NCBI GenBank assembly: GCA_001784555.1 | Contig: MFRM01000003.1 | Location: 65,606 to 129,605 of the forward strand | Direction: 5' to 3' | Source of the DNA: Candidatus Melainabacteria bacterium RIFCSPHIGHO2_02_FULL_34_12 | GTDB taxonomy: Bacteria > Cyanobacteriota > Vampirovibrionia > 2-02-FULL-35-15 | DNA: 64,000 bases | Shown here: positions 13,654 through 43,159 of the stretch, in pieces | How the letters are laid out: every line of letters begins with the position of its first letter | How positions within the stretch are numbered: the stretch's first letter is position 1 | Position numbers and translations under genes: made by a program | The notes under the pieces: model-generated | Told to the model about the DNA's origin: nothing | The model's input: only the letters and a program-made list of their open reading frames with translations | Databases searched by the model: none

Positions 13654-14226
13654 ATGGAATCAAATTATAATCCTGCGATTCACCATAGGCGATCAATTCG
13701 ATTAAAAGAATTTAATTATTCACAAAATGGTTATTATTTTATTACAATTTGCACAAAAAACAGAGAATGTTATTTGGGCAAAATTATAAATAAAAAAATG
13801 ACATTATCCAATGAAGGAAAAATTGTTTTGCAATATTGGAATGAATTACCAAATCACTTTTCAAATGTTGGTTTGGATGAATATGTAATAATGCCAAATC
13901 ATTTGCACGGAATTATTGTTATTGAAAACGATTTGAATAATGACAATCGTAATGCGCAATGTAGGGGCGGGGTTACCCCGCCCCTACAACATTACACATT
14001 GGGTCAAATCATTGCATATTTGAAATATCAAACAACAAAAACAATAAATCAATTTTATAAAACCCCCGGCAAACCATTCTGGCAACGCAATTATTATGAA
14101 CACATAATCCGTAATGAATCAGAATTAACCCGTATTCATGAATACATTAGAAATAATCCTATACAATGGGAATTTGACAGGAATAACCGAAAAAACATTG
14201 CTAGAATAAATAATCACAATATATGA
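13654..14226 (+). CDS. REP-associated HUH/Y1 tyrosine transposase (RAYT, IS200/TnpA superfamily)
   Basis: HHRRSIRL..YS..GYYFITIC, MPNHLHGII (HUH), WQRNYYEHIIR..YIRNNP..W (catalytic Tyr); stop overlaps the mnmA ATG. Confidence 0.93.
   Translation: MESNYNPAIHHRRSIRLKEFNYSQNGYYFITICTKNRECYLGKIINKKMTLSNEGKIVLQYWNELPNHFSNVGLDEYVIMPNHLHGIIVIENDLNNDNRNAQCRGGVTPPLQHYTLGQIIAYLKYQTTKTINQFYKTPGKPFWQRNYYEHIIRNESELTRIHEYIRNNPIQWEFDRNNRKNIARINNHNI
13960..13988. repeat. family A palindrome inside the RAYT gene (CRGGVTPPLQ)
   Basis: tgtaggggcggggttaccccgcccctaca, perfect stem. Confidence 0.95.
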
Positions 14227-15413
14227 CCCCGCAAATCCTAGAAAAACAAAAACTATACGAAAACTATTGGCCGTCACTAGACAGCAAAATTGCTATCTGC
14301 ATGAGCGGTGGAGTAGACAGCAGCGTCAGTGCTTATTTACTTGCTAAAAAAGGTTATAAAACTGTCGGACTTACCGGCTGGCTTTTTAAAGGATCCAATC
14401 GCTGCTGTGACGGCGGAATGATTGATGCAGCAAAGATCTCTGAGTTTATAGGCATAGAACATCTATCTAAAGATTTAAGAGAACTTTTTAAAAATCAAAT
14501 CGTAGATCATTTTATTTCTTCCTACGGTAGCGGATCCACACCGATTCCATGCATTACCTGTAACAATGTCATTAAATGGGGATCACTTATGGAATATGCA
14601 TTTAATGAATTAAATTGTACACATATTGCTACGGGTCATTATGCAAAACTGGTAAATGATAACGGATATTTTAAAATCGTCCGTCCAAAAGATTCTAAAA
14701 AAGATCAAACATTTATGCTCTGGGGATTAACACAGGATGTGCTTTCCAGAACAGTTTTTCCATTAGGAGATTTAACAAAAGATGAAGTCAGAGATGCTGC
14801 CAGAGACGGAAATTTGTTTTTAGCCGAAAAAGAAGAAAGTCAGGATATTTGTTTTGTCTCAGAAAAAGAAGGAACTCAGGGGTTCCTTGGAAAATTTCTT
14901 GAACAAAAAGAAGGATTTATTATTGAAAATAAAACCGGAAATGTTTTAGGAACACATAGCGGTACTCATAATTACACTATCGGTCAAAGAAAAGGCATGG
15001 GAATTGCTTATAGCGAACCTCTTTATGTAATAGATGTAGATGTAGAAAAAAATATTGTTTATGCAGGTACTAAAGAAGAATTAGAAGGATGTGAATTAAT
15101 TGCAAAGGATGTGAATTGGATTTATCCTATAATTGCGAGGAGGCACGAAGTACCGACGAAGCAATCTCGATCGAATTCAAAAGATACGCTCGGGACTGCT
15201 TCGGGGTTTTCAACCCCTCGCAGTGACACTATCCGTGTCATGGCAAAAATCAGATATAATTCAAAAACTTCACCTGCAACAATCTCACTCTTGGAAGATA
15301 ATAAAATAAAAATGGTCTTTGATGAACCACAGTCAGCAATTACTCCCGGACAGGCATGTGTGTTTTATGATGAGACGGATCAAATTCTTCTTGGCGGTGG
15401 GTGGATAACTTAG
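14223..15413 (+). CDS. mnmA: tRNA 2-thiouridine(34) synthase
   Basis: MSGGVDSS, PIPCITCN, ATGHYA, KDQT, ESQDICF, TIGQRKG, ITPGQ. Confidence 0.97.
   Translation: MTPQILEKQKLYENYWPSLDSKIAICMSGGVDSSVSAYLLAKKGYKTVGLTGWLFKGSNRCCDGGMIDAAKISEFIGIEHLSKDLRELFKNQIVDHFISSYGSGSTPIPCITCNNVIKWGSLMEYAFNELNCTHIATGHYAKLVNDNGYFKIVRPKDSKKDQTFMLWGLTQDVLSRTVFPLGDLTKDEVRDAARDGNLFLAEKEESQDICFVSEKEGTQGFLGKFLEQKEGFIIENKTGNVLGTHSGTHNYTIGQRKGMGIAYSEPLYVIDVDVEKNIVYAGTKEELEGCELIAKDVNWIYPIIARRHEVPTKQSRSNSKDTLGTASGFSTPRSDTIRVMAKIRYNSKTSPATISLLEDNKIKMVFDEPQSAITPGQACVFYDETDQILLGGGWIT
15128..15228. mobile_element. family B element in-frame in mnmA, opposite orientation to the amidase copy
   Basis: tataattgcgaggaggcacgaagtaccgacgaagcaatctcgatcg...cccctcgcagtgaca; encodes IIARRHEVPTKQSRSNSKDTLGTASGFSTPRSDT. 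Confidence 0.9.
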
Positions 15414-15415
15414 TA

Positions 15416-15454
15416 TGTCATTGCGAGCCGAACAAAGTGAGGCGTGGCAATCTC
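15416..15454. repeat. family B half-element between convergent mnmA and the Sua5-family gene
   Basis: tgtcattgcgagccgaacaaagtgaggcgtggcaatctc. Confidence 0.85.
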
Positions 15455-15475
15455 CAAACTTTTTTGATGTGTTTC

Positions 15476-16009
15476 TTATCGTAATACTTTAATACCATCT
15501 TTTGTAATTTCTATAATCTTAGATGGTCTATATGACATCTCACCTTTTTTTGCTTTAACAAACAATTTCACCTTTTTTGCAATTTGATTTACATCCTTTT
15601 TCCCTGAAACATTTGCACTAGTGCTGGCAAGAACATGGTTAGGACATTGTTTTAATAATTTCAAAAGAAATTTATTTTTTGGTACACGAATACCAATGGT
15701 TTTAAAACCTTTGTTTAAAAATTTGGGCACATGTTTTGATACAGGGAGAACAATGGTTAACGGTCCAGGCCATTGTTTTAGTAAGGGCATGCCATGGCGC
15801 ACGCCTACAACAAATCTCTTTAACGATTTCCAATCATGCCCCAATAAAATCAATGGTTTGTTTCTGCTTCTTTTTTTTAATTTATATATTTTTTCAACTG
15901 CAGATTTTGAATTATAACGACAAACCAGACCATAAACCGTATCGGTAGGAATAATAATCGGTTCACTATCTAAAATTAATTTAAGGCATTTCTTTAAATT
16001 TTGTTCCAC
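15476..16009 (-). CDS. tsaC: L-threonylcarbamoyladenylate synthase (TsaC/Sua5/YrdC)
   Basis: PTDTVYGL, KKR..KPL, WPGPLT, IGIRVP, STSANVSG. Confidence 0.9.
   Translation of the reverse strand: MEQNLKKCLKLILDSEPIIIPTDTVYGLVCRYNSKSAVEKIYKLKKRSRNKPLILLGHDWKSLKRFVVGVRHGMPLLKQWPGPLTIVLPVSKHVPKFLNKGFKTIGIRVPKNKFLLKLLKQCPNHVLASTSANVSGKKDVNQIAKKVKLFVKAKKGEMSYRPSKIIEITKDGIKVLR
15781..15808. repeat. family A palindrome in tsaC (VGVRHGMPL)
   Basis: gtaagggcatgccatggcgcacgcctac. Confidence 0.85.
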
Positions 16010-16032
16010 GTAATAATTATAGTTTACTGCTG

Positions 16033-17226
16033 TTAATTTTCTGGAGCAACAGGAAGTCTTATTATAATTGTCGCGCCGGAATCAGGTATACCAAATTTTG
16101 ACTCAACTCGTATCGTTCCACCTGCTTCTTCAACAATTTGTTTAATTATATCCATGCCAAGTCCTCTATTATTCTTGCCTGTTTTTGTAGAAAAACCTCT
16201 TTCTAAAATCATATTAGGATTAGCTGCAACACCGGGATCAATACCAGGTCCTTTATCTTCTGCTCTGACTTCAATATAATTACCATCTTGCCTAGCGGAA
16301 ATTTTAAAAGATACTCCAGTAAGTCGAAATTTTTCACACTCTTCACAAGCATTTGTAGCAAGATTAAGCCATACTTTAAATAAAATATCAGGATCGATTA
16401 AAACCTTCGGCAAATTTTGTCTATTAGAATCAAATTGTTCAACTGTATCAATAGCAAGATAATGTACTACTTTATCAGTAGGGAAATAACCCAAAGCATC
16501 TCTGATTGAATCATTTATATCGACTAACGTAGGATCGCCTTTATAACCTAAATCAAATTTTCTTATCATATTCATAAATCTCAAAATAATTTCTGCATTA
16601 TCGTCAAGTCTGCTGCAAGTCGCAATAGAATTTACTATACGCTCAGATGGTTTAACCACGCTAGCTAATTCATCATTAAGTTTTCTCAAATTGTCTCTAA
16701 ATCTCAAAAAGCTCCCCGCCATTGCAAGATAAATCGCAGAAGTGAATACATCATTAAACTCTTCTTGTAGATCAGTTCTTTCATCTTTAATTCTGCCAGC
16801 AATGAGGTCAACCCATCTACAAAATGCCTCAGATCTGCGTGCATAAGAAGTAATAGCACCATCAAGACTTTCAAAAGCATTAGATTCAAATCCTGCTGTT
16901 TCTAATTCCTCCTGAAGATCTATTAATAAAAGCTGAATTGAGGGTACTACCTTCATAGCATCATGATGTTCAGCACCAACCCGATCACAAAAAGCAGAAA
17001 AATCAATAGAAACATTATTGCTATTTGCTAAAGATGCAGGTGGAACTGTTAAGGTTGGAGGAAAAGTGGATGGCCGAAGAGTTCCTGCATCACTGGTCAA
17101 AGTTGTTCTGTCGGGAGAATTAACACTCGTATCATCATTAATATCAGAAACATTTTGGCCACCATTAGCTTCATCTCTGGGTAATAATTTTGAGCCTGTT
17201 TTGCCAACTCCCAAAAGAGGGTTCAT
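16033..17226 (-). CDS. histidine kinase-like protein with HATPase_c domain and no clear H-box
   Basis: NLATNACE (N), DKGPGI (G1), GFSTK (F), GLGMDIIKQIVE..GG.I.VES (G2). Confidence 0.75.
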   Translation of the reverse strand: MNPLLGVGKTGSKLLPRDEANGGQNVSDINDDTSVNSPDRTTLTSDAGTLRPSTFPPTLTVPPASLANSNNVSIDFSAFCDRVGAEHHDAMKVVPSIQLLLIDLQEELETAGFESNAFESLDGAITSYARRSEAFCRWVDLIAGRIKDERTDLQEEFNDVFTSAIYLAMAGSFLRFRDNLRKLNDELASVVKPSERIVNSIATCSRLDDNAEIILRFMNMIRKFDLGYKGDPTLVDINDSIRDALGYFPTDKVVHYLAIDTVEQFDSNRQNLPKVLIDPDILFKVWLNLATNACEECEKFRLTGVSFKISARQDGNYIEVRAEDKGPGIDPGVAANPNMILERGFSTKTGKNNRGLGMDIIKQIVEEAGGTIRVESKFGIPDSGATIIIRLPVAPEN

Positions 17227-17388
17227 TAATAAATCCTTTTGTTTAAAACATTCATTCTAAAATTGTTCATTATGTTAGCGTTTCATTTTGTTTTAAAATA
17301 CAATTTTAAGTAAGACTTAATACTAACCAAAAATTAAGAAGCTTAAGAGAAATCATCTTAACCTGATTAATACAATTATAATATCAAA

Positions 17389-17853
17389 ATGATTACTTTA
17401 ATCCAAAGAGTAACATCTGCAAAAGTAACCATCGAAAATAAGGTTACAGGCAATATAAAAAATGGGCTGCTTCTATATATAGGCTTTGAAGATGGAGACA
17501 ACTTAGAAAAAATAAAATGGTCCATTAATAAAATAATTAACCTTAGAATATTTGCAGATAAAGAAGACAAGATGAACCTTTCTCTTCTGGATATAAAAGG
17601 AGTAGGGGCGTATCGCGATACGCCCTTACTATTGGTGATTTCAAATTTCACTCTCCCGGCTGATTTAAATGAATCAGGCAGAAGACCTTCATTTACAAAA
17701 TCAGCCAGCCCGGAAATAGCAGAAAATCTCTATAATCAGTTTATAGATGAGTGTAAAAATCAAAATATAAATGTAGCTCAAGGAAAATTCGGCGCCATGA
17801 TGGATATTGAATCTGTAAATGATGGACCGGTTAATTTCATATTAAAAAGATGA
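17389..17853 (+). CDS. dtd: D-aminoacyl-tRNA deacylase
   Basis: IQRV..A.V, NLRIF.D...KMNLS, SNFTL, GRRPSF, GKFGAMM, NDGPV. Confidence 0.96.
   Translation: MITLIQRVTSAKVTIENKVTGNIKNGLLLYIGFEDGDNLEKIKWSINKIINLRIFADKEDKMNLSLLDIKGVGAYRDTPLLLVISNFTLPADLNESGRRPSFTKSASPEIAENLYNQFIDECKNQNINVAQGKFGAMMDIESVNDGPVNFILKR
17601..17630. repeat. family A palindrome in dtd (VGAYRDTPL)
   Basis: agtaggggcgtatcgcgatacgcccttact. Confidence 0.92.
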
Positions 17854-17856
17854 GCT

Positions 17857-17870
17857 GTCATTGCAATGAC
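17857..17870. repeat. collapsed family B remnant (fused termini)
   Basis: gtcattgcaatgac equals left end GTCATTGC plus right end GCAATGAC sharing GC. Confidence 0.65.
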
Positions 17871-17888
17871 GTATAATAACTTATAACT

Positions 17889-18929
17889 ATGAAACGAATT
17901 AAAATTGGCTCACTCGAAATAAACTCATACGTCTACATCCCTCCCATGGCAGGAGTAACAGATCTGGCTTTTAGAAAAATGGTAAGAATGTTTGATAAAG
18001 AGACTTTAATTGCTACTGAAATGGTCAGCTCAAAAGCTCTTATGTTTAATCCAAATCAAAGTCTCATGAAACTGAGTCCTGATGAACATCCTGTAGGCAT
18101 ACAACTTTTTGGACATGAACCAGAAGTTATGGCAAAAGCAGCAGTACTTGCAGAAGAACAAGGAGCTGATTTTTTAGATATAAATATGGGTTGTCCTGCT
18201 CCGAAAATTACAAAAGGAAAAGATGGAGCAGCTCTTATGAGGGAACCAGAGCTGGCTGTAGAAATTATTAAAGCGGTAATTAATGCGGTTAAAATTCCAG
18301 TTACTGTAAAGATGAGACTTGGCTGGGATGAATGTCAGAAAAATTCTCCAGATCTAGCTAAGAGACTTGAAGATATTGGTGTCTGTGCTTTTACTATACA
18401 CGGAAGAACCCGTGAACAAGGCTATACAGGAAATGCTGACTGGGAAGCAATTTCTGTAGTAAAAAAATCAACTTCAGTTCCGATATTTGGGAATGGTGAT
18501 GTAAGAACTCCACAAGACGCAAAAAAATTAATCGAGATAACAGAATGTGATGGTGTAGCAATTGCTAGAGCAACCATGGGCTCACCCTGGCTTTCAATGC
18601 AGATAAACCAGTTTTTAAATACCGGAAGTTTTAGTCCCGAACCAAGTCTTTCAGAAAAGTTAGACATTGCTTTAGCTCATCTTGATGAACTTATAAAAAT
18701 AAAAGGTGAATATGTAGGTATACGCGAAGGCAGGCGTCATTTGATTAATTACACAAAAGGAATGCCAAACTCTGCACAGATACGGGCTCAGATAGGACAA
18801 ATAAATACAAGAGAAGAAGCTTATAATTTATTATCTAGGTTAAAAGAAGAGCTTACAAATTTGGTAAAAAGAATTAACTTAGTTAAGAACACTGAAATGT
18901 CTGAATTTGACTTAATTTCAACAAATTAG
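17889..18929 (+). CDS. dusB: tRNA dihydrouridine synthase
   Basis: PMAGVTD, TEMVS, DINMGCP, TIHGRT, GNGDV. Confidence 0.94.
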   Translation: MKRIKIGSLEINSYVYIPPMAGVTDLAFRKMVRMFDKETLIATEMVSSKALMFNPNQSLMKLSPDEHPVGIQLFGHEPEVMAKAAVLAEEQGADFLDINMGCPAPKITKGKDGAALMREPELAVEIIKAVINAVKIPVTVKMRLGWDECQKNSPDLAKRLEDIGVCAFTIHGRTREQGYTGNADWEAISVVKKSTSVPIFGNGDVRTPQDAKKLIEITECDGVAIARATMGSPWLSMQINQFLNTGSFSPEPSLSEKLDIALAHLDELIKIKGEYVGIREGRRHLINYTKGMPNSAQIRAQIGQINTREEAYNLLSRLKEELTNLVKRINLVKNTEMSEFDLISTN

Positions 18930-19002
18930 CATAATAATCAAAATCTATATTGATTTTCACATCTACAATCAGTAGAATAAAAAGAAATCTCAAAGGAAAT
19001 TT

Positions 19003-19560
19003 ATGGCAGGTCAAAAAAATTATTTTGCAGTTTTTGTACTAGGAACAGACAGTATCGGAATAGTCTCTGATATTACTAAGGCCCTGTTTGAGTTAGGCGC
19101 AAACATAAATGATTCTTCCCACACCATAATAGGAAATGAATTTGCAATGCTTCTTCTTATTTCTACATCTCCAAGCGGTACAGTTGAAAATATAAAAAGT
19201 GCATTTAAAGAAATCAGCGAAAAAAGAAATTTAACTGTTCATGCTCATCAGCTTAAAGAAGAAGACATTTACAGAAAGACAACTGACCCGGGACAGCTTT
19301 GTGTGATTCATTTATACGGCGCAGATAAACCAGGAATTGTTTATCAAGTGACCGATCTCCTGGCAAAAAATAAAGTAAATATTACAGATCTAAGCACAAG
19401 AAGATTTGGAAATGATACAAACCCAATTTATATAATGTATCTGGAAGCTGAAGTACCATATGATGTCGACACCAGAAAACTCGGAAGCGAATTAAATAAA
19501 ATAGCATCTAAATTAAACGTAGAAATTAAGTATGAGTTAGAAGAAGTCGCTAGTTTATAA
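19003..19560 (+). CDS. tandem ACT-domain protein (GcvR-like)
   Basis: GTDSIGIVS..LFELGANI.DS and GADKPGIVY..LA...VNITDL. Confidence 0.88.
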   Translation: MAGQKNYFAVFVLGTDSIGIVSDITKALFELGANINDSSHTIIGNEFAMLLLISTSPSGTVENIKSAFKEISEKRNLTVHAHQLKEEDIYRKTTDPGQLCVIHLYGADKPGIVYQVTDLLAKNKVNITDLSTRRFGNDTNPIYIMYLEAEVPYDVDTRKLGSELNKIASKLNVEIKYELEEVASL

Positions 19561-19661
19561 TGTCATTGCGAGCCCGCCTTTGGCGGGCGAAGCAATCTCG
19601 ATCGATTTTGCATAGATAGTTCGGGGTTGCTTCGTCGGGTAAAACCCTCCTCGCAATGACA
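19561..19661. mobile_element. family B 101-bp element, intergenic
   Basis: tgtcattgcgagcccgcctttggcgggcgaagcaatctcgatcg...ttgcttcgtcgggtaaaaccctcctcgcaatgaca. Confidence 0.92.
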
Positions 19662-19678: not shown

Positions 19679-20197
19679 ATGGCAATACTACAGGTTCATC
19701 AATTTCCCGATCCAATCTTAAAAAAAATCTGTGCTCCTGTTACAGATTTCGATTCAAAATTAAACTCATTTGTAAATGACTTCACAGAAACCCTGCAAAG
19801 TCATAATTTTTGCGTGGGGCTGGCTGCTCCACAGGTAGGAAATCTTCAAAGAATAATTGCAATAGATGTTTCAAGAGCCAGAAAACCACAGCTGGGAAAC
19901 GGACTTTTAATTTTAATAAATCCAGTGATTCTTGAATCTTCAAATTTTAAATTTGTAAGGGAAGGATGTCTTAGCATTCCGGATTTCACAGCAAACGTAA
20001 AACGCGCCATGAAGATTACAGTGCAATATCAAGAATATTGTAGAGACGCGCCGCGGCGCGTCTCTGATAAGGTATTGGAAACAACCAATTTTGAAGCACA
20101 TGCCATTCAGCATGAAATGGATCATCTGGATGGAATTCTTTTTCTGGACAGAATTACAAATCCAGCCAGTGATTTGTTTAGAAGAAAGAGAGCTTAG
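19679..20197 (+). CDS. def: peptide deformylase
   Basis: GLAAPQVG, EGCLS, QHEMDHLDG. The ORF-track start at 19661 comes from the repeat end. Confidence 0.96.
   Translation: MAILQVHQFPDPILKKICAPVTDFDSKLNSFVNDFTETLQSHNFCVGLAAPQVGNLQRIIAIDVSRARKPQLGNGLLILINPVILESSNFKFVREGCLSIPDFTANVKRAMKITVQYQEYCRDAPRRVSDKVLETTNFEAHAIQHEMDHLDGILFLDRITNPASDLFRRKRA
20039..20066. repeat. family A palindrome in def (CRDAPRRVS)
   Basis: tgtagagacgcgccgcggcgcgtctctg. Confidence 0.92.
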
Positions 20198-24299: not shown

Positions 24300-25718
24300 A
24301 TGAAACAAGTCTACATAGAAACCTTTGGATGTCAGATGAATAAAGCAGATACAGAGCATATGCTTGGACTTCTGGATGAAATTGATTATAAACATACAGA
24401 AAATATTGAAGAAGCTAATCTTGTTTTGTTTAATACTTGTACAATTCGTGAAACAGCAAATCATAAATTTTACAGTCAGCTTGGCATTGTTGGAAAAATG
24501 AAAAAGCAAAGATGTAGAGACGGGGTGACCCCGTCTTTACTGCTTGGAGTAGGGGGTTGTGCAGCCCAGGATAAAAAAGAATGGCTGATTAAAAACTTTC
24601 CTTATGTAGATATTGTATTTGGCACAAATAATATTCAAAATTTACCTGAGCTTGTAAAAAAAGCTGAGAGCGGTAAAAAAGTCTGTGAGATAGAAGAAGA
24701 GCTTCCGTATGAGTTGCCTGAACTGCCTGTAATCCGTCAGACTAAGGTTAGCGCATGGGTAAATGTAATTCTTGGATGTAATTTTAATTGTACTTATTGC
24801 ATAGTTCCCAGTGTTCGCGGAAGAGAAAAAAGCAGAAAGCCTGAAGATATTTTAAAAGAAGTTGAAAGGCTTGCAGAAGAAGGATTTAAGGAAGTCACGT
24901 TACTTGGGCAGAATGTAACTGCTTATGGTTATGATCTTTCATCAAACTACTCAAAAGAAAAAGCCACATTCGGTCACATACCAGATGATCCTGAATATTC
25001 ACTTGCAAAGCTTATTAGATATGTTCATGACGTAGATGGAATTGAAAGAATAAGATTTTTAACAGGGCATCCATTTCATGTAACTGACGAGCTCATAGAT
25101 ACAGTAGCAGAGCTTCCTAAAGCATGCGAATACTTTCACATTCCCATGCAATCTGGAGATAACACAGTTTTAAAGCGAATGGCTAGAGTTTATACTGTAG
25201 AAAAATATAAAGAGATGGTAGAGAAAATTAGAAATAAAATGCCAAGTAGAGGCGTATTGCAATACGCCCATGCTGCAATCACAAGCGATTTTATAGTAGG
25301 TTTTCCTGGTGAGACAGAGGAGCAGTTTTTAAATACAGTAAAAATTGTTAAAGAAATTGGATTTGATGGGTGCAATACAGCAGCATATTCACCCAGACCC
25401 GATACCCCAAGCGCTACATGGGATAAACAAATTCCTGAGGAAGAAAAAAATGCAAGACTTAGATATTTAAACTCTGTTGTAAATGAAGTAGTAGGGATTA
25501 AAAATAAAGATCTTTTGGATACAATTCAGGAAGTTTTAGTAGAAGGTACAAGTAAGCGAAATGAAAACAATTTGAGCGGCAGAACGCGGGGAAATACAAT
25601 TGTTAATTTTGATCCTACAATGGCGGGTTTTAAACCCGCCATTGTAGGCACATTGGTAAATATAAAAATAACAAAGGTAAAACGATGGGCTCTTGATGGT
25701 GAGGTGGTAGGCAATTAA
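24300..25718 (+). CDS. miaB: tRNA-i6A37 methylthiotransferase
   Basis: TFGCQMN, NTCTIRE, GCNFNCTYCIVP (radical SAM), DFIVGFPGET, C-terminal TRAM domain. Confidence 0.96.
   Translation: MKQVYIETFGCQMNKADTEHMLGLLDEIDYKHTENIEEANLVLFNTCTIRETANHKFYSQLGIVGKMKKQRCRDGVTPSLLLGVGGCAAQDKKEWLIKNFPYVDIVFGTNNIQNLPELVKKAESGKKVCEIEEELPYELPELPVIRQTKVSAWVNVILGCNFNCTYCIVPSVRGREKSRKPEDILKEVERLAEEGFKEVTLLGQNVTAYGYDLSSNYSKEKATFGHIPDDPEYSLAKLIRYVHDVDGIERIRFLTGHPFHVTDELIDTVAELPKACEYFHIPMQSGDNTVLKRMARVYTVEKYKEMVEKIRNKMPSRGVLQYAHAAITSDFIVGFPGETEEQFLNTVKIVKEIGFDGCNTAAYSPRPDTPSATWDKQIPEEEKNARLRYLNSVVNEVVGIKNKDLLDTIQEVLVEGTSKRNENNLSGRTRGNTIVNFDPTMAGFKPAIVGTLVNIKITKVKRWALDGEVVGN
24513..24540. repeat. family A palindrome in miaB, first copy (CRDGVTPSL)
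   Basis: tgtagagacggggtgaccccgtctttac. Confidence 0.9.
25246..25273. repeat. family A palindrome in miaB, second copy (SRGVLQYAHA)
   Basis: gtagaggcgtattgcaatacgcccatgc; same core as 38356. Confidence 0.88.
25614..25648. repeat. 35-bp perfect palindrome in the miaB TRAM domain, with reversed CTAC...GTAG ends
   Basis: cctacaatggcgggttt-t-aaacccgccattgtagg (17-bp arms). Confidence 0.9.
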
Positions 25719-32026: not shown

Positions 32027-32053
32027 ATAGAGACTTAGTAACTATGTCTCTAC
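32027..32053. repeat. family A palindrome upstream of apbC
   Basis: Minus strand reads GTAGAGACATAGTTACTAAGTCTCTAT. Confidence 0.7.
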
Positions 32054-32299: not shown

Positions 32300-32329
32300 A
32301 GTAGAGGCGTTGCGCGCAACGCCTCTACT
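32300..32329. repeat. family A perfect palindrome just after the asd stop
   Basis: agtagaggcgttgcgcgcaacgcctctact. Confidence 0.95.
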
Positions 32330-33501: not shown

Positions 33502-34416
33502 ATGCAAAACCCATTTGGTCAAGTTTTAACAGCAATGATCACACCTTTTTGTAGAGGCGAGGTAACCTCGCCTCTACAAATAGATTATGAAGGCACTGAA
33601 AAATTAATTGACCATTTAATTAAGACTGGAACAGACACAATCATAGTTGCTGGCACTACAGGTGAAAGTCCTACCTTATCTCATGAAGAAGAAAGAGAAC
33701 TTTGCAAATTTGTACAAAAAACTACGGGCAAAAAAATTAAAATAATTCTAGGTGCAGGTTCTAATTCCACAGCAACTGCAATTGAATCCACAAAAGAAGC
33801 AGAAAAATTAGGCGTAGATGGAGTACTTTCTGTAGTTCCTTATTACAACAAACCAAATCAAAGAGGACTTATTGAACATTTTAGTCAGATTGCAAAGTCT
33901 ACAAGTCTGCCAATTATTTTGTATAACATTCCAGGTCGTACTGGAATAAATATGGAGCCTCAAACAGCAGCAGAACTTGTCAGTAAATTTAAAAATATAA
34001 TTGGATATAAAGATGCTACAGGTAATCTGGAAAATACCAGCCAAGTAATACAATTAGCACCAAAAGGATTCCTTATATATAGCGGGGATGACAGCTTAAC
34101 CCTTCCAATGTTATCTATAGGAGCTGTTGGTGTTATAAGCGTAGCCAGTCATATTGTTGGAAATGAAATTAAGGATATGATAAATTCTTTCTTTACGGGT
34201 AAAATAGATAAAGCAAAAGAGATTCATAACAAACTTTTTCCTTTATTTAAAGCATTATTTAAGGCACCAAATCCTACATGTATAAAAGCAGCACTGGAAA
34301 TAAAAGGAATATGCAAATCAGATTTAAGATTGCCACTTGTAAAATTAACTGAAAAAGAATTAGCTGAATTAAAAATGGTGATTGAAAAAATAGAAAATCA
34401 ATTAATCAAGGCATAA
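33502..34416 (+). CDS. dapA: 4-hydroxy-tetrahydrodipicolinate synthase
   Basis: TAMITPF, GTTGESPTL, PYYNKP, LYNIPGRTG, GYKDA, YSGDD. Confidence 0.97.
   Translation: MQNPFGQVLTAMITPFCRGEVTSPLQIDYEGTEKLIDHLIKTGTDTIIVAGTTGESPTLSHEEERELCKFVQKTTGKKIKIILGAGSNSTATAIESTKEAEKLGVDGVLSVVPYYNKPNQRGLIEHFSQIAKSTSLPIILYNIPGRTGINMEPQTAAELVSKFKNIIGYKDATGNLENTSQVIQLAPKGFLIYSGDDSLTLPMLSIGAVGVISVASHIVGNEIKDMINSFFTGKIDKAKEIHNKLFPLFKALFKAPNPTCIKAALEIKGICKSDLRLPLVKLTEKELAELKMVIEKIENQLIKA
33550..33578. repeat. family A perfect palindrome in dapA (CRGEVTSPLQ)
   Basis: tgtagaggcgaggtaacctcgcctctaca. Confidence 0.95.
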
Positions 34417-34424
34417 ACAGATTT

Positions 34425-34453
34425 CCCGCCACAGGCGGGTCCGCCTAGGGCGG
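34425..34453. repeat. tandem GC mini-hairpins after dapA (possible terminator or repeat)
   Basis: cccgcc-aca-ggcggg then tccgcc-tag-ggcgga; a similar cccgcctttggcggg sits in the 19561 element. Confidence 0.7.
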
Positions 34454-34502
34454 AAAAAACCGGAAAATTCCATCAACATCTGTGTTGATATCGGTAATTA
34501 AA

Positions 34503-34529
34503 TGTAGGGGCATACCAATGTGTTTGCCC
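34503..34529. repeat. family A subtype GTAGGGGCAAAC..ATGTGTTTGCCC, intergenic
   Basis: tgtaggggcataccaatgtgtttgccc; same subtype at 43839 and 63185. Confidence 0.8.
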
Positions 34530-34544
34530 AGTGAAACAAAAAAG

Positions 34545-37211: not shown

Positions 37212-38174
37212 TTACATAATCAATCCATTCAAATACTCGTCAAAATCAAATTCTACGATGTCGTCTATTTGTTCACCTGTTCCTATAAATTTTACAGGTA
37301 GAGAAAGTTTGTTCATAATATTTAAAATCACACCGCCCTTTGCAGAACTGTCGAGCTTAGAAAGAATAATGCCGGTAAGTCCAATGGCTTTTGAAAATAA
37401 TTCTGCCTGAACAATTGCATTTTGACCAATCGTGGCATCCAGTACGATTAGCTTCTCAAGATTTGGAGCCATGCCAAGGCATGGCTTTACAAATTTTTCG
37501 ATTATAGAATTTATTTTCCGCAATTCATCCATGAGATTAATCTGTGAATGTAATCTCCCTGCAGTATCAATGAGGACAACATTAAAATTTTCATTTTTTG
37601 CTTTCTTAAGCGCAGCATAAACTACAGCATCTGGTTTTTTAACCTCAGGAGGTGAAAATATTTCTGCTTCTGCTCGCTTTGCCCATACATCAAGCTGTTC
37701 TCCTGCAGCTGCACGAAAGGTATCTCCTGCCACGATTAAAACTTTTTGTTTGCCATCTTTAAATCTCCTTGCAAGTTTGCCTATAGATGTGGTTTTACCG
37801 GAGCCGTTTACACCGACGATTAAATAAATTCCGTTTTGAAGGTGGGGTCCCGGGACTTCACCTTCGGGTAATTGTGATTTTATTGTTTCCTTTATTTTTT
37901 CTTGTAATTTATTTTTTTCAATCTGTAAGGGCGTGCCATGGACTGCCCCTACTTTTATATTCTTCTTTAATTCATTAATAATTTTTTCAGACAGCTCAAG
38001 ACCTACATCAGCTTTAATGAATTTTTCTAAAAGACTGTCATAGAATTCTTCATCAACATTTATGTTTATATTCTCTGTCGTAGGGACGTAGCGAGCTACG
38101 TCCCTACGGGTTTTTGATAATGCTTCTTTTATCTTGAATATATTATTTTCCAACCACTTCTTCATCTTAAGCAT
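37212..38174 (-). CDS. ftsY: signal recognition particle receptor FtsY
   Basis: ADVG, VGVNGSGKTTSIGKLA, GDTFRAAA, DTAGRLH, DATIGQN, SKLDSSAKGG, GTGE. Confidence 0.96.
   Translation of the reverse strand: MLKMKKWLENNIFKIKEALSKTRRDVARYVPTTENININVDEEFYDSLLEKFIKADVGLELSEKIINELKKNIKVGAVHGTPLQIEKNKLQEKIKETIKSQLPEGEVPGPHLQNGIYLIVGVNGSGKTTSIGKLARRFKDGKQKVLIVAGDTFRAAAGEQLDVWAKRAEAEIFSPPEVKKPDAVVYAALKKAKNENFNVVLIDTAGRLHSQINLMDELRKINSIIEKFVKPCLGMAPNLEKLIVLDATIGQNAIVQAELFSKAIGLTGIILSKLDSSAKGGVILNIMNKLSLPVKFIGTGEQIDDIVEFDFDEYLNGLIM
37463..37491. repeat. family A palindrome in ftsY (VKPCLGMAP)
   Basis: Minus strand tgtaaagccatgccttggcatggctccaa. Confidence 0.82.
37837..37866. repeat. GTCCCGGGAC-core palindrome in ftsY (EGEVPGPHLQ)
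   Basis: gaaggtggggtcccgggacttcaccttc; related copy at 38488. Confidence 0.8.
37924..37953. repeat. family A palindrome in ftsY (VGAVHGTPLQ)
   Basis: tgtaagggcgtgccatggactgcccctact. Confidence 0.87.
38079..38108. repeat. family A perfect palindrome in ftsY (RRDVARYVPT)
   Basis: cgtagggacgtagcgagctacgtccctacg. Confidence 0.95.
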
Positions 38175-38187
38175 CTATAATAACATT

Positions 38188-39657
38188 ATGGTTAACAAGG
38201 ACTCCATTGCATTACTCCCTCTAGACGACCGTCCAGTTTCTTATCTACTTCCAAAACAAATTGCTGATTTTTCAGGAGTAAATTTAATTTTACCTGAGAG
38301 AAAATATCTTGGTGATTTAAATCATGGATCTGATTTGAAATATATTGATAATTGGTGTAGGGGCGTATTGCAATACGCCCCTACATTTGTTGTTTCATTG
38401 GACAGCTGGGTTTACGGTGGATTGGTTCAATCAAGAAAACACGATTTCACATTAGACGAATTAAAGAAACGTGTTAGTGCACTCGCGGGAGGCGAGGTCC
38501 CGGGATCTCGCCTGCAGAATGTTTATGGATTTTCATCCATAATGCGAATCCCAAATTATAATTCCAGCGAAGAAGAAAAAGATTACTGGAAAGACTATGG
38601 AGAAAGTATTTTTAAGTGGTCTGAGCTTATGCATAAAGTAGGAAGAGGGATTACTGAAAAAGGAACATCTCATGAAGAGCTGCTGGAAAAATGGTATGAG
38701 AGTTCAAAATCAATTCCAGTGAACGTTCTGGCTGATTATAAAAGACACAGAGATAAAAACCTTACGGTTAATTTGCTTTGGATCGAACTGTCACATGATA
38801 AATGTTTTGAATGTTTAATTTTTTCATGTGACGATTCTTCTAGATATGGAATGAATGTAATTGAAGCTGAATATATTAAACGAGAAATTAAAAAGCACAG
38901 ATTTTCAGATCTAGCTAAAGTAATTTCAGGCACTGATGAAATATCTCTTGTTCTTATGACTAAAGCAAATCTTAAATCACAAGACAAAAAACCTTCTCTA
39001 TGTCTTTTCTTTAACAGCATTGAGGGTAAAACCCAGATCCCAAGATATGAATCAAATACAATACATGAATCTATTAAAGATCAAATAGATACTTTAGGGC
39101 TTGAAATAAAAGATTTAAATGAATCTGATATTTTAGTTTGTATTCATCTTTCAGATTCAGTCCAGGGAGATCATATTTTTAAAATTAAACCCTGCGACAC
39201 TTCAAAAAATATTGAAGAGCTAAAGAATATGCTTGAAAAAATTAATAAGCCTTTTATTCTGATAGATCTTGCATATGCAAACGGATCAGATCCACAGCTC
39301 ATAGAAGCACTGATAAATTCAAAAATCAACTGGGACCATTGTTACGGTTATGCAGGCTGGAATACCTGCTCAAACAGCACTGGTTCAGCTCTAGCAATAG
39401 GAATAAACAGGTGGATTGCTGAAAAAAATAGTTCCTTTAATAAGATTGCATTTAAAAAATGTCTTCTTACAAGATTTTTAGATGATTATGCATATCAGGC
39501 TCAGATAAGACATGTTGGTATTACAGAAAAAGAGATAAACAAAAAAATAATGCCACATGTTCAGGCATTTTCAAAACTTTTAGGAATAAATGATATAAAG
39601 GTAAAATGTTCACTGCCATGGAAAAGAACATTTGAAGCAGAGATCGATGTCATATAA
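38188..39657 (+). CDS. DUF4127-like protein
   Basis: LPLDDRP, SLD..VYGGLVQSR, FSSIMR, GTDE, DLAYANGSD, YAGWNTCSNSTG, RFLDDYAYQA. Confidence 0.8.
   Translation: MVNKDSIALLPLDDRPVSYLLPKQIADFSGVNLILPERKYLGDLNHGSDLKYIDNWCRGVLQYAPTFVVSLDSWVYGGLVQSRKHDFTLDELKKRVSALAGGEVPGSRLQNVYGFSSIMRIPNYNSSEEEKDYWKDYGESIFKWSELMHKVGRGITEKGTSHEELLEKWYESSKSIPVNVLADYKRHRDKNLTVNLLWIELSHDKCFECLIFSCDDSSRYGMNVIEAEYIKREIKKHRFSDLAKVISGTDEISLVLMTKANLKSQDKKPSLCLFFNSIEGKTQIPRYESNTIHESIKDQIDTLGLEIKDLNESDILVCIHLSDSVQGDHIFKIKPCDTSKNIEELKNMLEKINKPFILIDLAYANGSDPQLIEALINSKINWDHCYGYAGWNTCSNSTGSALAIGINRWIAEKNSSFNKIAFKKCLLTRFLDDYAYQAQIRHVGITEKEINKKIMPHVQAFSKLLGINDIKVKCSLPWKRTFEAEIDVI
38356..38385. repeat. family A perfect palindrome in the DUF4127 gene (CRGVLQYAPT)
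   Basis: tgtaggggcgtattgcaatacgcccctaca. Confidence 0.95.
38488..38516. repeat. GTCCCGGGA-core palindrome in the DUF4127 gene (GGEVPGSRLQ)
   Basis: ggaggcgaggtcccgggatctcgcctgca. Confidence 0.8.
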
Positions 39658-41308
39658 ACAAAAAATTCATAAAGAAATCAAAAAAGCCTTAAACGGTGAA
39701 TCTGATTTGGTTTATTTAGAACGTACAAAACTAAAAGAACATGGTGATGTTTCAACAAATATTGCAATGGTACTGGCAAAAAAGCAAAAAAGAAATCCAC
39801 TTGATATTGCAAATGAGCTAAAAGAAAAAATAAAAGCAGATGGCAGTTTAATCTCACATATAGAAGTAGCAAAACCTGGTTTTGTAAATTTTGTAGTCGG
39901 AGATTATGCACTTAGTGAGTCTTTAGTTGAGGTTATTAATATTGGAGATAAATTTGGCTTTGCGCCTGAAAAATCAAAAGAAGAAACATTAGTGGAATAT
40001 GTTTCTGCAAATCCAACCGGAGATTTACACATCGGTCATGGAAGACAGGCAGTGATTGGAAGTTGTTTAGTAAATCTTTTAAGCGCAGCAGGATATGACG
40101 TAAAAAGTGAGTTTTACATAAATGATTTTGGCGAACAAATACAAAACCTCTCAGACACTGCATGGGCAATACATTGTAAATTAAACGGAGAAAATGTCCA
40201 GTGGAAAGAAGATTTTTATCCTGAAGATTTATTATTGCCGTACGTGAAGAAAATTGTAGGGGCTTACTGCAGTAAGCCCCAGCAGCAATTGACGAAAGAA
40301 ATCCTTGGACAAGAAATAAAAGATTTAATTTTAAAATCACAGGAAGAGCTGCTTTCTTCTCTAAAGATAAGTTTTGATAAATGGCATAGTGAAACAGATC
40401 TGCATACTCGTGGAGAAGTTAAAAATACACTTAAAAAACTAAAAGAGTCTGGCATTACATACGAGCATGAAGGAGCCATATGGCTTAAGGCACAAGAACT
40501 TGGAGATGTAAGAGACAGAGTGCTAGTAAGATCTGACGGGCGAAGTACTTATTTGCTGGCAGACGTTGCATATCATATTAATAAATTTAAACGCAGTACA
40601 AAACTAATTACCCTATGGGGTGCAGATCACCATGGACAGGAAGTTGGACTAAAAGGTGCTTTAAAGGTTCTTAAATATGATGAAAACAAGCTTGAAATAA
40701 TTTTTGTGCAGATGGTTAGCTTAAAAAAAGAAGGACAGGAAATAAAAATGTCCAAGCGCGCCGGGACAGTAGTTACTGTAGATGAAGTATTAAATGAAGT
40801 AGGCCCCGATGCTTTTAGATATTTTCTGGTTGAAAGTCATCCTAACCATAGAATGATTTTTGATATTGATTTAGCTAAAAAACAAGATAAAGATAATCCT
40901 GTTTATTACATCCAGTATGCCCATGCAAGATGTTGCAGTATTTTTAGACAAATTACAGATGACATTAAAAAAGAGGAGGTGCTAAAAAAGTGCACGATAA
41001 GCCCTGATGTTTTTATGTATTTATTTAAAGCTAATAATCAGGAGTACTCAGCCACTAAATCTCTTATTTTACGGATTCTTGATTTTCCTGAAGAAGTTCT
41101 AAATTCGGCTGAGAGCAGATCGCCTAGCAGAATTGCTAATTATTTAAAAGAACTGGCTACAGATTTCCATCAATTTTATACAGTTTGTCGTGTAATATCA
41201 AAAGATATAAATTTAACCGAAGCCAGATTAGGTCTGGTCGAAACAGTAAAAATAACAATTGCAAACGGTTTAAAAATACTAGGTATCAATGCACCTGAAT
41301 CAATGTAA
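39647..41308 (+). CDS. argS: arginine--tRNA ligase
   Basis: HGD.STNIAM, PGFVNF, VEYVSANPTGDLHIGH, WGADHHG, KMSKRAG, NPVYYIQYAHAR, APESM. Confidence 0.97.
   Translation: MSYKQKIHKEIKKALNGESDLVYLERTKLKEHGDVSTNIAMVLAKKQKRNPLDIANELKEKIKADGSLISHIEVAKPGFVNFVVGDYALSESLVEVINIGDKFGFAPEKSKEETLVEYVSANPTGDLHIGHGRQAVIGSCLVNLLSAAGYDVKSEFYINDFGEQIQNLSDTAWAIHCKLNGENVQWKEDFYPEDLLLPYVKKIVGAYCSKPQQQLTKEILGQEIKDLILKSQEELLSSLKISFDKWHSETDLHTRGEVKNTLKKLKESGITYEHEGAIWLKAQELGDVRDRVLVRSDGRSTYLLADVAYHINKFKRSTKLITLWGADHHGQEVGLKGALKVLKYDENKLEIIFVQMVSLKKEGQEIKMSKRAGTVVTVDEVLNEVGPDAFRYFLVESHPNHRMIFDIDLAKKQDKDNPVYYIQYAHARCCSIFRQITDDIKKEEVLKKCTISPDVFMYLFKANNQEYSATKSLILRILDFPEEVLNSAESRSPSRIANYLKELATDFHQFYTVCRVISKDINLTEARLGLVETVKITIANGLKILGINAPESM
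40255..40284. repeat. family A palindrome in argS (VGAYCSKPQQ)
   Basis: tgtaggggcttactgcagtaagccccagca. Confidence 0.9.
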
Positions 41309-41313
41309 AACAA

Positions 41314-41343
41314 TGTAGAGGCGTAGTGCATTATGCCTCTACA
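41314..41343. repeat. family A palindrome, intergenic after argS
   Basis: tgtagaggcgtagtgcattatgcctctaca. Confidence 0.88.
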
Positions 41344-41364
41344 AACAAATGCTAGAATTAACAT

Positions 41365-41661
41365 ATGCCTGAAACACCATACTGTCCGCTCTTAAGCATT
41401 AACAAAGAAGTTCCTGTTTTATGTCAGGAAGAACTTTGTATGTGGTATGTTAAGCAACTTAAACTTTGTTCCATTACAGTACAGGCATATGCAAACGCTT
41501 TAAATCTGCAAATGCCACAAAGACCCACAGGTTCTCAGGGAGAAACTAAACCTACACAGCAAGCCACACCTCAACAACAAGTTAAACAAAATTTAACCAA
41601 GCCTCAGTCTAAAGATCAGCCAAAAGCTGCAAATCCTTTTGCACTTGACGATTTAGACTAA
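41365..41661 (+). CDS. hypothetical protein with an N-terminal four-Cys motif and Gln/Pro-rich tail
   Basis: YCPLLS..LC..ELCMWY...LCSI. Confidence 0.7.
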   Translation: MPETPYCPLLSINKEVPVLCQEELCMWYVKQLKLCSITVQAYANALNLQMPQRPTGSQGETKPTQQATPQQQVKQNLTKPQSKDQPKAANPFALDDLD

Positions 41662-41784
41662 AGAACATAAAAATACGTCATTTGTAGGGCAAATAGTTTA
41701 TTAAATATTTGAATTCTAAGGATCTAATATAAGATAAGATCGTCATAAAATAAAGATCCTTAAAAAATTGATAAAGGGAACAAA

Positions 41785-42267
41785 ATGGGTTTTGCTGCAA
41801 GAAAAGAGAATACAAGTCTTGAAGGTTTTGAAGAACTTTGGGAAAGTCCAGATCAATCTCAATCAGTTGATTCTATTTCAAAACAAATTCATTCAATTTT
41901 AAAAGTTTTAGTTGATGAAAGAATTGCATTAAAGCAGGAAAACCAACTGGTTAATGAATTAAAACAACATATGCATTCTCTTGAATCGCAGATTCAAAAA
42001 TTAAATTGGCAATTAGGACAAAGAGAAAAAGAACTTTCAAGCTTATATACTGAATTCCACCAGGTAAAAAGCCAAAAAGAATCCATGGAGAAACAAACAG
42101 AAACATATAAAGAACTACAAAAAGAAAACCGTGAAATAAGACAACTAGCTGAACAACTTTCAAATCAAATTCTTCATGAAAAAGCAAAGAACGAGCAGTT
42201 AATTGAGCTTTTAAAAGAATTGCAAAATCCGGAATTAGTAAAAATTACTAAAAAACTTGGGTTATAA
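41785..42267 (+). CDS. hypothetical coiled-coil protein
   Basis: Q/E/K/L heptads; AAGGGA upstream. Confidence 0.75.
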   Translation: MGFAARKENTSLEGFEELWESPDQSQSVDSISKQIHSILKVLVDERIALKQENQLVNELKQHMHSLESQIQKLNWQLGQREKELSSLYTEFHQVKSQKESMEKQTETYKELQKENREIRQLAEQLSNQILHEKAKNEQLIELLKELQNPELVKITKKLGL

Positions 42268-42290
42268 AGCGCCTCCAAGGAAGGCGCTTT
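42266..42290. terminator. probable bidirectional hairpin terminator
   Basis: aaagcgcct-ccaagga-aggcgcttt between convergent genes. Confidence 0.6.
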
Positions 42291-42301
42291 GATTTCGCTC
42301 G

Positions 42302-43159
42302 TTAATATCCCGGAAGCAAGCTTCCGGATTTTACACTTCGCTCAAATATAAACAAACATCTATCTAATTTAGAATAATCTTTTACAATTTCAAAACTGTT
42401 TAATCCTTTTGATTTCAGCAGTTTTATTAAATCATTCACAAGAGATGGATCTATTTCTAATGCAATCAAACGTTTATTGTCATTGCGAGGAGCAGTTATC
42501 AATTCAAATATCCTCTCATAATATATTAATCCTGAATTATTTTCTTTTGAGCCGACAAGTGCAATCTTAGGTTCATGAAGCACAACCTCGGGTCTTAATT
42601 TCTTCATTTCGCTTGATTTCACGTAAGGTGGATTTGAGATTATTAGATCAAAATTATTTCTATTTAATATTTCTTCCATGCCATTAGAAAATACATCACA
42701 TACCTCAAATTTTATTTTCTCCGAAACATTGTTTTTCTCAGCATTTTCTCTGGCTAAATTTATAATGTCTTCATTTACATCTATTGCAATGATTTTTATA
42801 TCCGGAATTAATCTGGCAAGTGCAATTGCAATGATGCCAGAGCCAGTGCCTATATCCAATGCCGTAGGGACATGCCGCGGCATGTCCCTACTATTGATTA
42901 ACCTTCTCACCGTTTCTTCAACTAGAATTTCAGTCTCAGGTCTAGGTATCAAAACATTTTTATCGACTTTTACTTCAAAATCCATAAAATAAGCTTTTCC
43001 AAGAATATACTGAATAGGGATTCTTGTTTTTATTCTTTCTGAAATAATTTTTTTTATTTGTTCAGAATCTTTTAATTCCATAAGTAATATGGAAATTTCT
43101 TTTTTTGCTTCCTGAGGCTCTATTCCTGCAGAAATTAGTTTTTCAATTAATTCTTCCAT
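42302..43159 (-). CDS. prmC: release factor glutamine methyltransferase
   Basis: PIQYILG, VLIPRPETE, LDIGTGSG, ISNPPY, HEPKIAL. Confidence 0.95.
   Translation of the reverse strand: MEELIEKLISAGIEPQEAKKEISILLMELKDSEQIKKIISERIKTRIPIQYILGKAYFMDFEVKVDKNVLIPRPETEILVEETVRRLINSRDMPRHVPTALDIGTGSGIIAIALARLIPDIKIIAIDVNEDIINLARENAEKNNVSEKIKFEVCDVFSNGMEEILNRNNFDLIISNPPYVKSSEMKKLRPEVVLHEPKIALVGSKENNSGLIYYERIFELITAPRNDNKRLIALEIDPSLVNDLIKLLKSKGLNSFEIVKDYSKLDRCLFIFERSVKSGSLLPGY
42479..42493. repeat. family B terminal remnant in prmC (APRND)
   Basis: gtcattgcgaggagc. Confidence 0.7.
42864..42891. repeat. family A perfect palindrome in prmC (SRDMPRHVPT)
   Basis: gtagggacatgccgcggcatgtccctac. Confidence 0.95.

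Follow-up and report, generated by a model that had tools for sequence, protein, structure and literature searches.

Repetitive extragenic palindromic (REP) sequences and the REP-associated tyrosine transposases (RAYTs) are widespread, while their mode of spread and upkeep is puzzling. The closest described systems are cited here from the consulted parts of the respective papers. Quentin, Siguier, Chandler and Fichant (2018; PMC6006769) describe "double-foot" REPs of TnpA_REP (RAYT) subclass 2.4, with a REP in frame within the RAYT gene. Sub-families of GTAG-tagged REPs with "alternative complementary stem residues", as well as REPs in coding regions of known proteins, are reported by Di Nocera, De Gregorio and Rocco (2013; PMC3733652), and compensatory changes are common in the hairpins of REPINs (Bertels and Rainey, 2011; PMC3116915). 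Homogenisation and extension of inverted-repeat arms are known effects of template switching (PMC8794818, PMC6649704; also PMC8604942, PMC13100816), which, where it takes place between strands, can also rewrite the centre of a palindrome (PMC8794818, PMC6649704). Here we describe a population of short palindromes in Candidatus Melainabacteria bacterium RIFCSPHIGHO2_02_FULL_34_12, centred on 64,000 nucleotides (nt) of its contig MFRM01000003.1 (positions 65,606 to 129,605 of the forward strand), called the window below.

The source genome (G000; 2.11 Mb in 26 contigs, 34% G+C) was analysed together with its family relatives G001 to G011, making 12 family genomes. Coordinates are in window numbering (window = G000:C3:65606-129605) unless a genome or contig is named. 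An earlier note on this DNA, made from the letters alone, had called the palindromes "family A". They are a double-foot REP population belonging with RAYT (TnpA_REP-like, HuH/Tyr) transposases: a published kind of element, now documented in detail for this lineage. With more than 100 spacer-less palindromes, nearly all of them different and half of them perfect, they form an unusually clean data set. Arm copying, in which one arm is rewritten from the other, is the best-supported explanation of their symmetry, alongside turnover in place; our confidence in it stands about midway between doubt and acceptance.

Architecture and arm symmetry

The element is a GC-rich palindrome of 27-29 nt, with the layout GTAG, R-G-R-C, variable core, G-Y-C-Y, CTAC. 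A tolerant genome-wide census of G000 gave 146 candidates, reduced to 119 by a G+C filter that took out 27 weak, AT-rich ones, and to 116 by taking out three 26-mers. By length, 86 of these 116 copies have 28 nt, 20 have 27, 9 have 29, and a single one has 30. They are scattered one by one over 23 contigs, without arrays; 59 are perfect palindromes, with 50 distinct sequences. Several contigs contain masked runs of N, which gave 237 false "palindromes" in a naive scan, and the counts of RAYTs and elements for G000 may be slightly low on account of these masked stretches.

In the 86 28-mers, positions 1-4, 6, and 8 are nearly fixed, and positions 5, 7, and 9-14 are polymorphic. Positions 1-4 are G in 82, T in 86, A in 86, and G in 82 copies, and the 3' end mirrors them, giving the GT[AG]G and C[TC]AC ends of a double-foot REP. 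Among the N-free 28-nt stretches of the whole genome that have no more than one arm mismatch, 63 start with GTAG, while the next commonest start is found in 5. When folded as single-stranded DNA, three of three copies tried form a hairpin of -12.3 to -15.1 kcal/mol (z -5.7 to -6.5), with a stem of 12 base pairs (bp) and a loop of 3-4 nt.

The earlier note had observed that the stems vary and nevertheless remain self-complementary, and had proposed covariation statistics as a check. Both the observation and the check hold up. In the 86 28-mers, variable positions are paired in 84-97% of copies, against 31-48% when the 3' partner letters are shuffled among copies; the observed and shuffled shares are 0.97 and 0.48 at position 5, 0.94 and 0.48 at position 7, 0.94 and 0.39 at position 9, 0.93 and 0.34 at position 11, 0.95 and 0.31 at position 12, 0.88 and 0.48 at position 13, and 0.84 and 0.48 at position 14. 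The pattern read backwards has no match in any of the 12 family genomes, compared with 78 forward matches in G000.

This symmetry includes the centre. Where the outer 12 bp are perfect (54 28-mers), both central pairs are complementary in 44, compared with an expected ~23%; the four central bases are the loop of the hairpin, so their symmetry is not selectable by pairing. One-step intermediates from CGCG number 11, fewer than either of the symmetric centres CATG (16) and TGCA (15). Half-sites of 37 different types occur in the 44 perfect 28-mers, and 28 of these types have a neighbour just one paired change away (17 by transition, 11 by transversion), while the chance that a random second substitution restores pairing is 1/81. 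For 17 of the 21 28-mers with one mismatch, neither arm type is present as a perfect variant elsewhere in the genome, so that these copies are not simply decayed forms of present masters.

Palindromy also continues past the feet, as judged against 5000 shuffles of the flank partners. Complementarity extends by at least one base in 49 copies (shuffled mean 31.2, reached in 0 of 5000 shuffles), by at least two in 17 (mean 9.5, reached in 57), and by at least three in 9 (mean 2.7, reached in 13).

In all, the 116 copies have 95 arm mismatches, a mean of ~0.8 per copy; as a rough estimate, mismatch removal at steady state would be ~35 times faster than mutation of a site. The earlier note had pointed to CG>CA/TG-type changes in imperfect copies. 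It was right in that 71 of the 95 mismatches are of transition type, but there is no special CpG effect: 22 of these 71 are in CpG, compared with 26% of the C's of the elements, and CpG deamination was rejected as a driver.

Host genes, transposase genes, and copies in the window

About two thirds of the copies sit in frame in housekeeping genes. Taking as "in gene" any stretch open for at least 120 codons, this applies to 74 of the 116, with 39 in phase 0, 35 in phase 1, and none in the phase that would read GTAG as a stop. Because the element is a palindrome, either orientation yields the same two peptide families, V-G/E-A/T-...-P/S-L and x-R-G/D-...; the varied peptides from one scaffold that the earlier note had envisaged are thus found, in two of the three phases. 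A preference for 27-mers in genes, where they would keep the frame, was looked for and rejected (14 of 74 in genes, 6 of 42 elsewhere). An origin of the cores from local target sequence was rejected, as cores are shared between different sites and between different genomes.

Within the window (Table 1) the host genes are dtd, def, miaB (two copies), dapA, ftsY (two copies), a DUF4127 gene, argS, a methyltransferase gene, and the RAYT gene itself. Compared to family relatives, the net inserts in residues are +8 in dtd, +6 in def, +8 and +6/7 in miaB, +5 in dapA, +1 in the DUF4127 gene, and +7 in ftsY, sizes that never match a clean 27 or 28 nt. They may reflect loss of target bases, partial copying of the element, or older elements that were already in these loops; a TA duplication and a role of microhomology were considered as well. 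An AlphaFold model of Dtd with its insert, built from a 12-row alignment, has a mean pLDDT (predicted local distance difference test score) of 69, with residues 54-77 and 88-99 below 50.

All ten cores listed in the earlier note are present in the window, but one of them, TAGCGAGCTA (38080, centre CGAG), is not self-complementary. The cores sit 7-10 bases past the coordinates given there, which mark the start of the element or the base before it, and the copies at 1222, 24514, 32027, 37925, and 41315 had been missed. Five window copies are perfect, and the right foot is decayed or missing in three (20040, 25246, and 40256). The sequence TTACTGCAGTAA occurs a second time at 57869, without GTAG/CTAC feet. 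The exact 28-mer of 38357-38384 has a summed contig depth of 216-486 in four public metagenome runs, compared with ~3-8 alongside, and contigs at the edges of this element diverge into many different flanks; the same variant must therefore be present at many other places or organisms of those samples.

Table 1. The RAYT gene and the double-foot REP copies of the window
Feature	Position	Location	Remarks
27-nt copy, 1 arm mismatch	1222..1248	open frame 387..1757	8-residue net insert compared to the sole relative covering the site
RAYT-like Y1 (HuH) transposase gene, 198 amino acids	13630..14226	+ strand	one in-frame element, behind the HuH motif
27-nt perfect palindrome, core GGGGTTACCCC	13961..13987	inside RAYT gene	peptide CRGGVTPPLQ; fold -15.1 kcal/mol, 12-bp stem, 3-nt loop
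28-nt copy	17602..17629	dtd	1 mismatch in right foot (CTTAC); peptide VGAYRDTPLL; +8 residues net compared to 11 of 11 family relatives
28-nt copy	20040..20067	def	right foot decayed (CTGA); +6 residues net compared to 9 relatives
27-nt copy, 1 mismatch	24514..24540	miaB	decayed copy at same site in G001
24-nt partial copy	25246..25269	miaB	without CTAC foot; exactly +8 residues compared to 6 of 6 relatives
27-nt copy	32027..32053	intergenic	left foot ATAG, 2 mismatches
28-nt perfect copy, core GTTGCGCGCAAC	32301..32328	intergenic	
27-nt perfect copy	33551..33577	dapA	peptide CRGEVTSPLQ
28-nt decayed copy, 4 mismatches	37925..37952	ftsY	
28-nt copy, 1 central mismatch (CGAG)	38080..38107	ftsY	
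28-nt perfect copy, core GTATTGCAATAC	38357..38384	DUF4127 gene	
28-nt copy	40256..40283	argS	right foot decayed (CAGC)
28-nt copy, 2 mismatches	41315..41342	directly after argS stop codon	
28-nt perfect copy, core ATGCCGCGGCAT	42864..42891	minus-strand methyltransferase gene	

The product of the window RAYT gene scores 29.8 bits against Pfam Y1_Tnp (PF01797; cut-off 23). Against NCBIfam NF047646, "REP-associated tyrosine transposase", it reaches 62.8 bits, and three of three copies score 62.8-69.6 bits, below the equivalog cut-off of 80. Its best PDB match is 4er8_A (E. coli TnpAREP), a weak one (E 0.16). Its motifs are NHLH, WQ, and YIRNNP; those of the copy at C3:250212 are DHFH, WQ, and YIINNA, and those of the copy on C12 are DHIH, WQ, and YVINNR. 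Compared with the subclass motifs in the table of PMC6006769 (NH[IFV]H, WQ, YIxNNP), WQ is present in all three G000 RAYTs and YIxNNP only in the window copy, and the HuH residues differ. A protein search found three open and two broken RAYT genes in G000, and copies in 8 of the 11 family relatives.

Every open RAYT gene has an internal REP. In 13 of the 16 open genes examined, from seven genomes, this is a double-foot REP after the HuH motif, perfect in 12; the RAYTs of G006, G007, and G010 all contain an identical 28-mer. The remaining three have a different, single-foot REP. No further copy with up to three arm mismatches was found in the 1.4-2.1 kb around the 16 genes, that is, none of the flanking REPs of a REPtron, and the copy nearest to the window RAYT is 3.4 kb away. 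Family genomes with a RAYT have 4-78 element copies; those with no RAYT match or with a broken fragment only have 4 (G002), 5 (G004, in which the protein query gave one broken fragment), 0 (G005), and 0 (G009), a comparison across 12 genomes that are kin and not independent. Among five matches to a loosened pattern in G002, three are perfect and distinct 28-mers.

The window RAYT lies upstream of dtd, and RAYTs occupy the same syntenic place in three genera (window 13630-14226, G001:C40:34202-34744, and G003:C27:16937-17482); this shared place suggests a gene that is passed on vertically, as a resident would be, and does not hop. These syntenic orthologues have different internal REP cores. 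In a RAYT tree computed without the REP insert, the three carriers of single-foot REPs (G000_C12, G011_C29, and G010_C2b) form a clade with 100/99 support. Two carriers of 29-mers are also a supported clade, and the double-foot core classes do not otherwise resolve, needing two changes each; all seven labels together need 8 changes, compared with a shuffled mean of 11.1. In the G006:C10 RAYT, the peptide encoded by the REP is partly duplicated in tandem (VACNVSTACNVST), and the loop of the G003:C27:16937 RAYT has two different REPs side by side.

Other repeats share these surroundings. The single-foot REP, a second type that has GTAG at one end only (GTAGGGGCA..TGTGTTTGCCC), is found in the window at 34504-34531 and at 63186-63213, where the TAG of GTAG is the stop codon of the open reading frame 61345..63189; it is also in frame, with the peptide VGA[DN]Q.VCP, inside the RAYTs of the single-foot clade, which include the one at G000:C12:3892-4395 (L002). 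Directly after dapA, at 34422-34458, is a pair of GC-rich mini-hairpins (CCCGCC..GGCGGG and TCCGCC..GGCGGA). Its contig depth is 34-54 in the four public runs, compared with ~5 alongside, and many contigs diverge from it into different flanks; this is another dispersed repeat family. In a comparison aimed at empty sites within one genus, the surroundings of two intergenic elements of G010 (C1:269850 and C1:276408) do not align with G006 and G011. Opposite them, G011 (L086, L088) has sequences of ~100 nt resembling miniature inverted-repeat transposable elements, with GTCATTGCGAG...CTCGCAATGAC ends, where G010 has a 28-nt REP: repeats of different kinds are drawn to identical spots behind stop codons.

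Explanations of the symmetry

Copies at the same site in relatives keep their core class and differ on both arms. Over 14 comparisons at five sites, which are not independent of each other, there are 38 paired changes, 35 one-arm changes, 8 others, and 111 unchanged. Between G000 and G001, the dapA element differs at two positions on both arms, as does the ftsY element, which also has a centre position that is symmetric only in G001. The G010 copy at one of these sites lacks both feet, yet remains symmetric at 27 of 28 positions, while differing from that of G000 at four positions on both arms; symmetry also persists in copies with decayed feet in G004 and G001. At the dapA site, an insert is present in 16 of 86 close homologues, as RG..SP in 7, RD..SS in 3, mixed G..SS in 3, and a decayed form in 3, so that both symmetric states and an intermediate between them occur. 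The closest DapA and ROK-kinase homologues carry the source label "Candidatus Melainabacteria bacterium".

Arm copying is favoured because the centre is symmetric, the flanks are palindromic, changes at the same site are paired, and G.U mismatches are not favoured; in particular, the symmetry of centre and flanks argues for copying from arm to arm, and not for hairpin selection alone. A change in one arm would quickly be either erased or copied onto the opposite arm. The likely route would be polymerase template switching at a quasi-palindrome during replication, a general process independent of RAYT, and a switch across the fork could copy the centre too and continue into the flanks. Mutation together with copying from arm to arm could then produce many distinct perfect variants. 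In the long term, copies resident at tolerant protein loops would be swapped in place for other variants from the pool of the genome, with RAYT needed for spread. If this is true, short selfish palindromes can evade mutational decay for a very long time while their sequence drifts, and essential proteins (DapA, MiaB, Dtd, Def, ArgRS, FtsY, and a ROK kinase) have had their surface loops rewritten repeatedly.

Several observations weigh against this explanation. The two central pairs are mismatched more often (in 10 and 14 of 86 copies) than those of the stem. The mixed G..SS state at dapA is found in three separate clusters of 90% identity, and because it persists there, correction cannot be very fast. 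On a tree of DapA, the proteins with inserts do not form one clade: there are 11 changes, at least four of them forced by well-supported branches. Several events of gain, loss, or exchange between alleles must therefore lie behind the insert, and vertical descent of any given copy is not assured. The ROK-kinase loop is occupied in most of 85 homologues, with a full element-type peptide in 28 and 21 distinct core tetrapeptides; host and core distances are weakly correlated (r 0.24, reached in 4 of 5000 permutations), and hosts 22-23% apart often carry wholly different cores, belonging to the same canonical classes that are found elsewhere in these genomes. Over time, then, one element takes the place of another at the same site, and a paired difference between distant relatives may have arisen otherwise than by change in situ. 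The earlier note had foreseen neither this replacement nor that the kind of element was already described.

The perfection of the RAYT-internal double-foot copies (12 of 13, compared with 59 of 116 genome-wide), along with the identical 28-mer in three RAYTs, suggests selection or an action of RAYT that plain template switching does not predict. In some cyanobacterial genomes a single variant is present in many identical copies, the outcome expected of ordinary copy-and-paste. Outer stems differ by genome, with AGAC on both arms in 31 copies of G008 and AGGC in 25 of G010, each among the 50 matches listed. Finally, the template-switch or arm-copying step suggested in the earlier note is the best fit to the centre, the flanks, the paired changes at single sites, and the network of half-sites, but no such event was seen directly. 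The stretch is present in seven public runs; the four examined contain the same clone, in which long pieces have 0 other letters, and no listed difference falls inside an element, with 103 rows lying outside the listing. A metagenome scan for strain-level relatives with the DUF4127 protein gave five loci, of 59-69% identity.

The dapA and ROK loops have features of their own. All DapA homologues with an insert share the same junctions and core class. In the DapA tree, P0008, which has the insert, is sister to P0018, which does not (97% support), and P0015 is sister to P0053 (99%); the patchy distribution may come from allele exchange between relatives or from repeated gain. In seven ROK homologues the loop is ~7 residues shorter and reads xE-K/Q-[SL]LL (alignment columns 188-242), resembling outer stems without a centre, and palindromes may collapse symmetrically in this way.

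The most serious rival to arm copying is a propagation filter acting on a long-lived pool. Only perfect hairpins would be copied or exchanged by RAYT, imperfect ones would decay, and old low-copy variants would be held family-wide, with no arm copying at all. The near-uniform perfection of RAYT-internal copies and the 28-mer common to three RAYT genes would follow from it, as would the low counts (0-5 copies) in genomes where no intact RAYT was found, the replacement of one canonical variant by another at the ROK loop, the four identical copies of one variant in G010, and the dominance of a single variant in some cyanobacteria. Exact variants also recur in other genera, although this does not decide for an old pool, given how few sequences are allowed. 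A filter does not account for the symmetry of four central bases that form a loop, for palindromy in the flanks, or for copies that have decayed feet and are still symmetric. Variants have just 1-3 copies each, the genome contains no perfect parent for 17 of the 21 one-mismatch copies, and a compensating hit would have to be found against the 1/81 chance at each further substitution. On balance we consider the filter improbable, while regarding it, like the coupled reaction discussed next, as a serious rival.

Arm copying might instead be coupled to RAYT itself. A HuH nick at the foot of the extruded hairpin would be followed by extension of the 3' end through the unfolded hairpin, as in parvoviral terminal resolution, with a preference for the RAYT-internal copy. 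This would fit both the perfection of that copy and the symmetric centre, but we know of no report of hairpin arm copying driven by a RAYT, although no search aimed at one was made, and no such reaction is evident in the present data. The CTAC foot does hold the C|T dinucleotide cut by TnpAREP enzymes, with GTAG as guide, according to the consulted part of PMC8266576. Perfect copies are still found in G002 and G004, with no RAYT match in the first and one broken fragment in the second, and symmetry is kept where the feet have decayed, neither of which such a reaction would lead one to expect; it seems quite unlikely. We would give similarly little credence to a dedicated system in which the RAYT nick at the foot primes synthesis through the unfolded hairpin, rewriting arm and centre and sometimes host flank, and in which site-specific exchange in place at the feet would make conserved loops of essential enzymes into cassette sites that cycle a combinatorial set of 10-residue peptides; perfection would then be due to this copying step and not to selection or chance.

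The earlier note had also raised the possibility that many RAYT paralogues each seed their own variant, to be checked by matching cores to the internal REPs. An internal REP is indeed present in every open RAYT, the single-foot RAYTs are a clade of their own, and the seven labels are more clustered on the tree than when shuffled. Against 50 perfect variants, however, there are three open and two broken RAYT genes; the syntenic orthologues differ in core, the double-foot core classes change twice each on the tree, and only the REP type maps to a clade. Large core classes of G000, e.g., GTTGCG and GTATTG, have no RAYT of that core in the genome. As the sole cause, this idea is largely refuted, and we think it very improbable.

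Selection on mRNA or DNA hairpins at each locus, with two-step compensation through G.U intermediates, is disfavoured and the least probable of all: the excess of transition-type mismatches, the G.U-type intermediate at the dapA site, and the frequent GT pairing in REP stems (consulted part of Di Nocera et al., 2013; PMC3733652) would agree with it, but on the sense strand in genes A.C mismatches (28) outnumber G.U (17), the share of perfect copies is equal in genes (37 of 74) and elsewhere (22 of 42), loop bases are symmetric, and a common function is implausible for hairpins in 74 unrelated reading frames.

Comparison with described systems

What is added here to the described systems is modest: the symmetric centre, the extension into the flanks, the series of copies at the same site, and a dense view of one loop, with which the mechanism becomes testable.

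Selfish palindromic DNA in frame in functional genes, as found here, is also known from the Rickettsia palindromic elements; these are several times longer, and are not GTAG/RAYT elements.

The closest likeness is to the subclass 2.4 double-foot REPs, which in the consulted part of PMC6006769 begin with GT[AG]G, end in the reverse complement of this foot, have stems that are long and perfect, occur as insertions in unrelated genes, and are abundant in Cyanobacteria; in a sample of 151 genomes from the phylum, 47 contain matches to the pattern of the present elements, in some cases up to 145 copies. Unlike in that subclass, no REPs flank the RAYT genes within 1.4-2.1 kb, and the HuH motif is NHLH or DHFH/DHIH where NH[IFV]H is listed there; membership of the RAYTs in subclass 2.4 is putative. 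Variant diversity, the symmetric centre, and turnover in place are not treated in that part of the paper.

The GTAG REPs of Di Nocera et al. (2013), as described in the consulted sections, have one unpaired tag and mostly stems of 6-9 bp with a loop, whereas here the palindrome spans the whole 28 nt and has two feet, almost every copy represents a separate variant, and two of every three copies are in genes. REPINs resemble the present elements in being symmetric hairpin units linked to a RAYT, but consist of two inverted REPs and a spacer, are intergenic, and have a dominant master sequence (PMC3116915, in the portion consulted); here there is a single 28-mer without spacer, mostly in genes, and no dominant master.

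With quasi-palindrome correction and the concerted evolution of coding palindromes, as presented in the consulted parts of PMC8794818, PMC6649704, PMC7202029, and PMC8604942, the present elements have in common homogenised arms, paired substitutions, outward extension, and tolerance in coding sequence. Those cases of template switching concern single loci or organelle genes, whereas here a similar mechanism would act on a dispersed mobile family that has a dedicated HuH enzyme.

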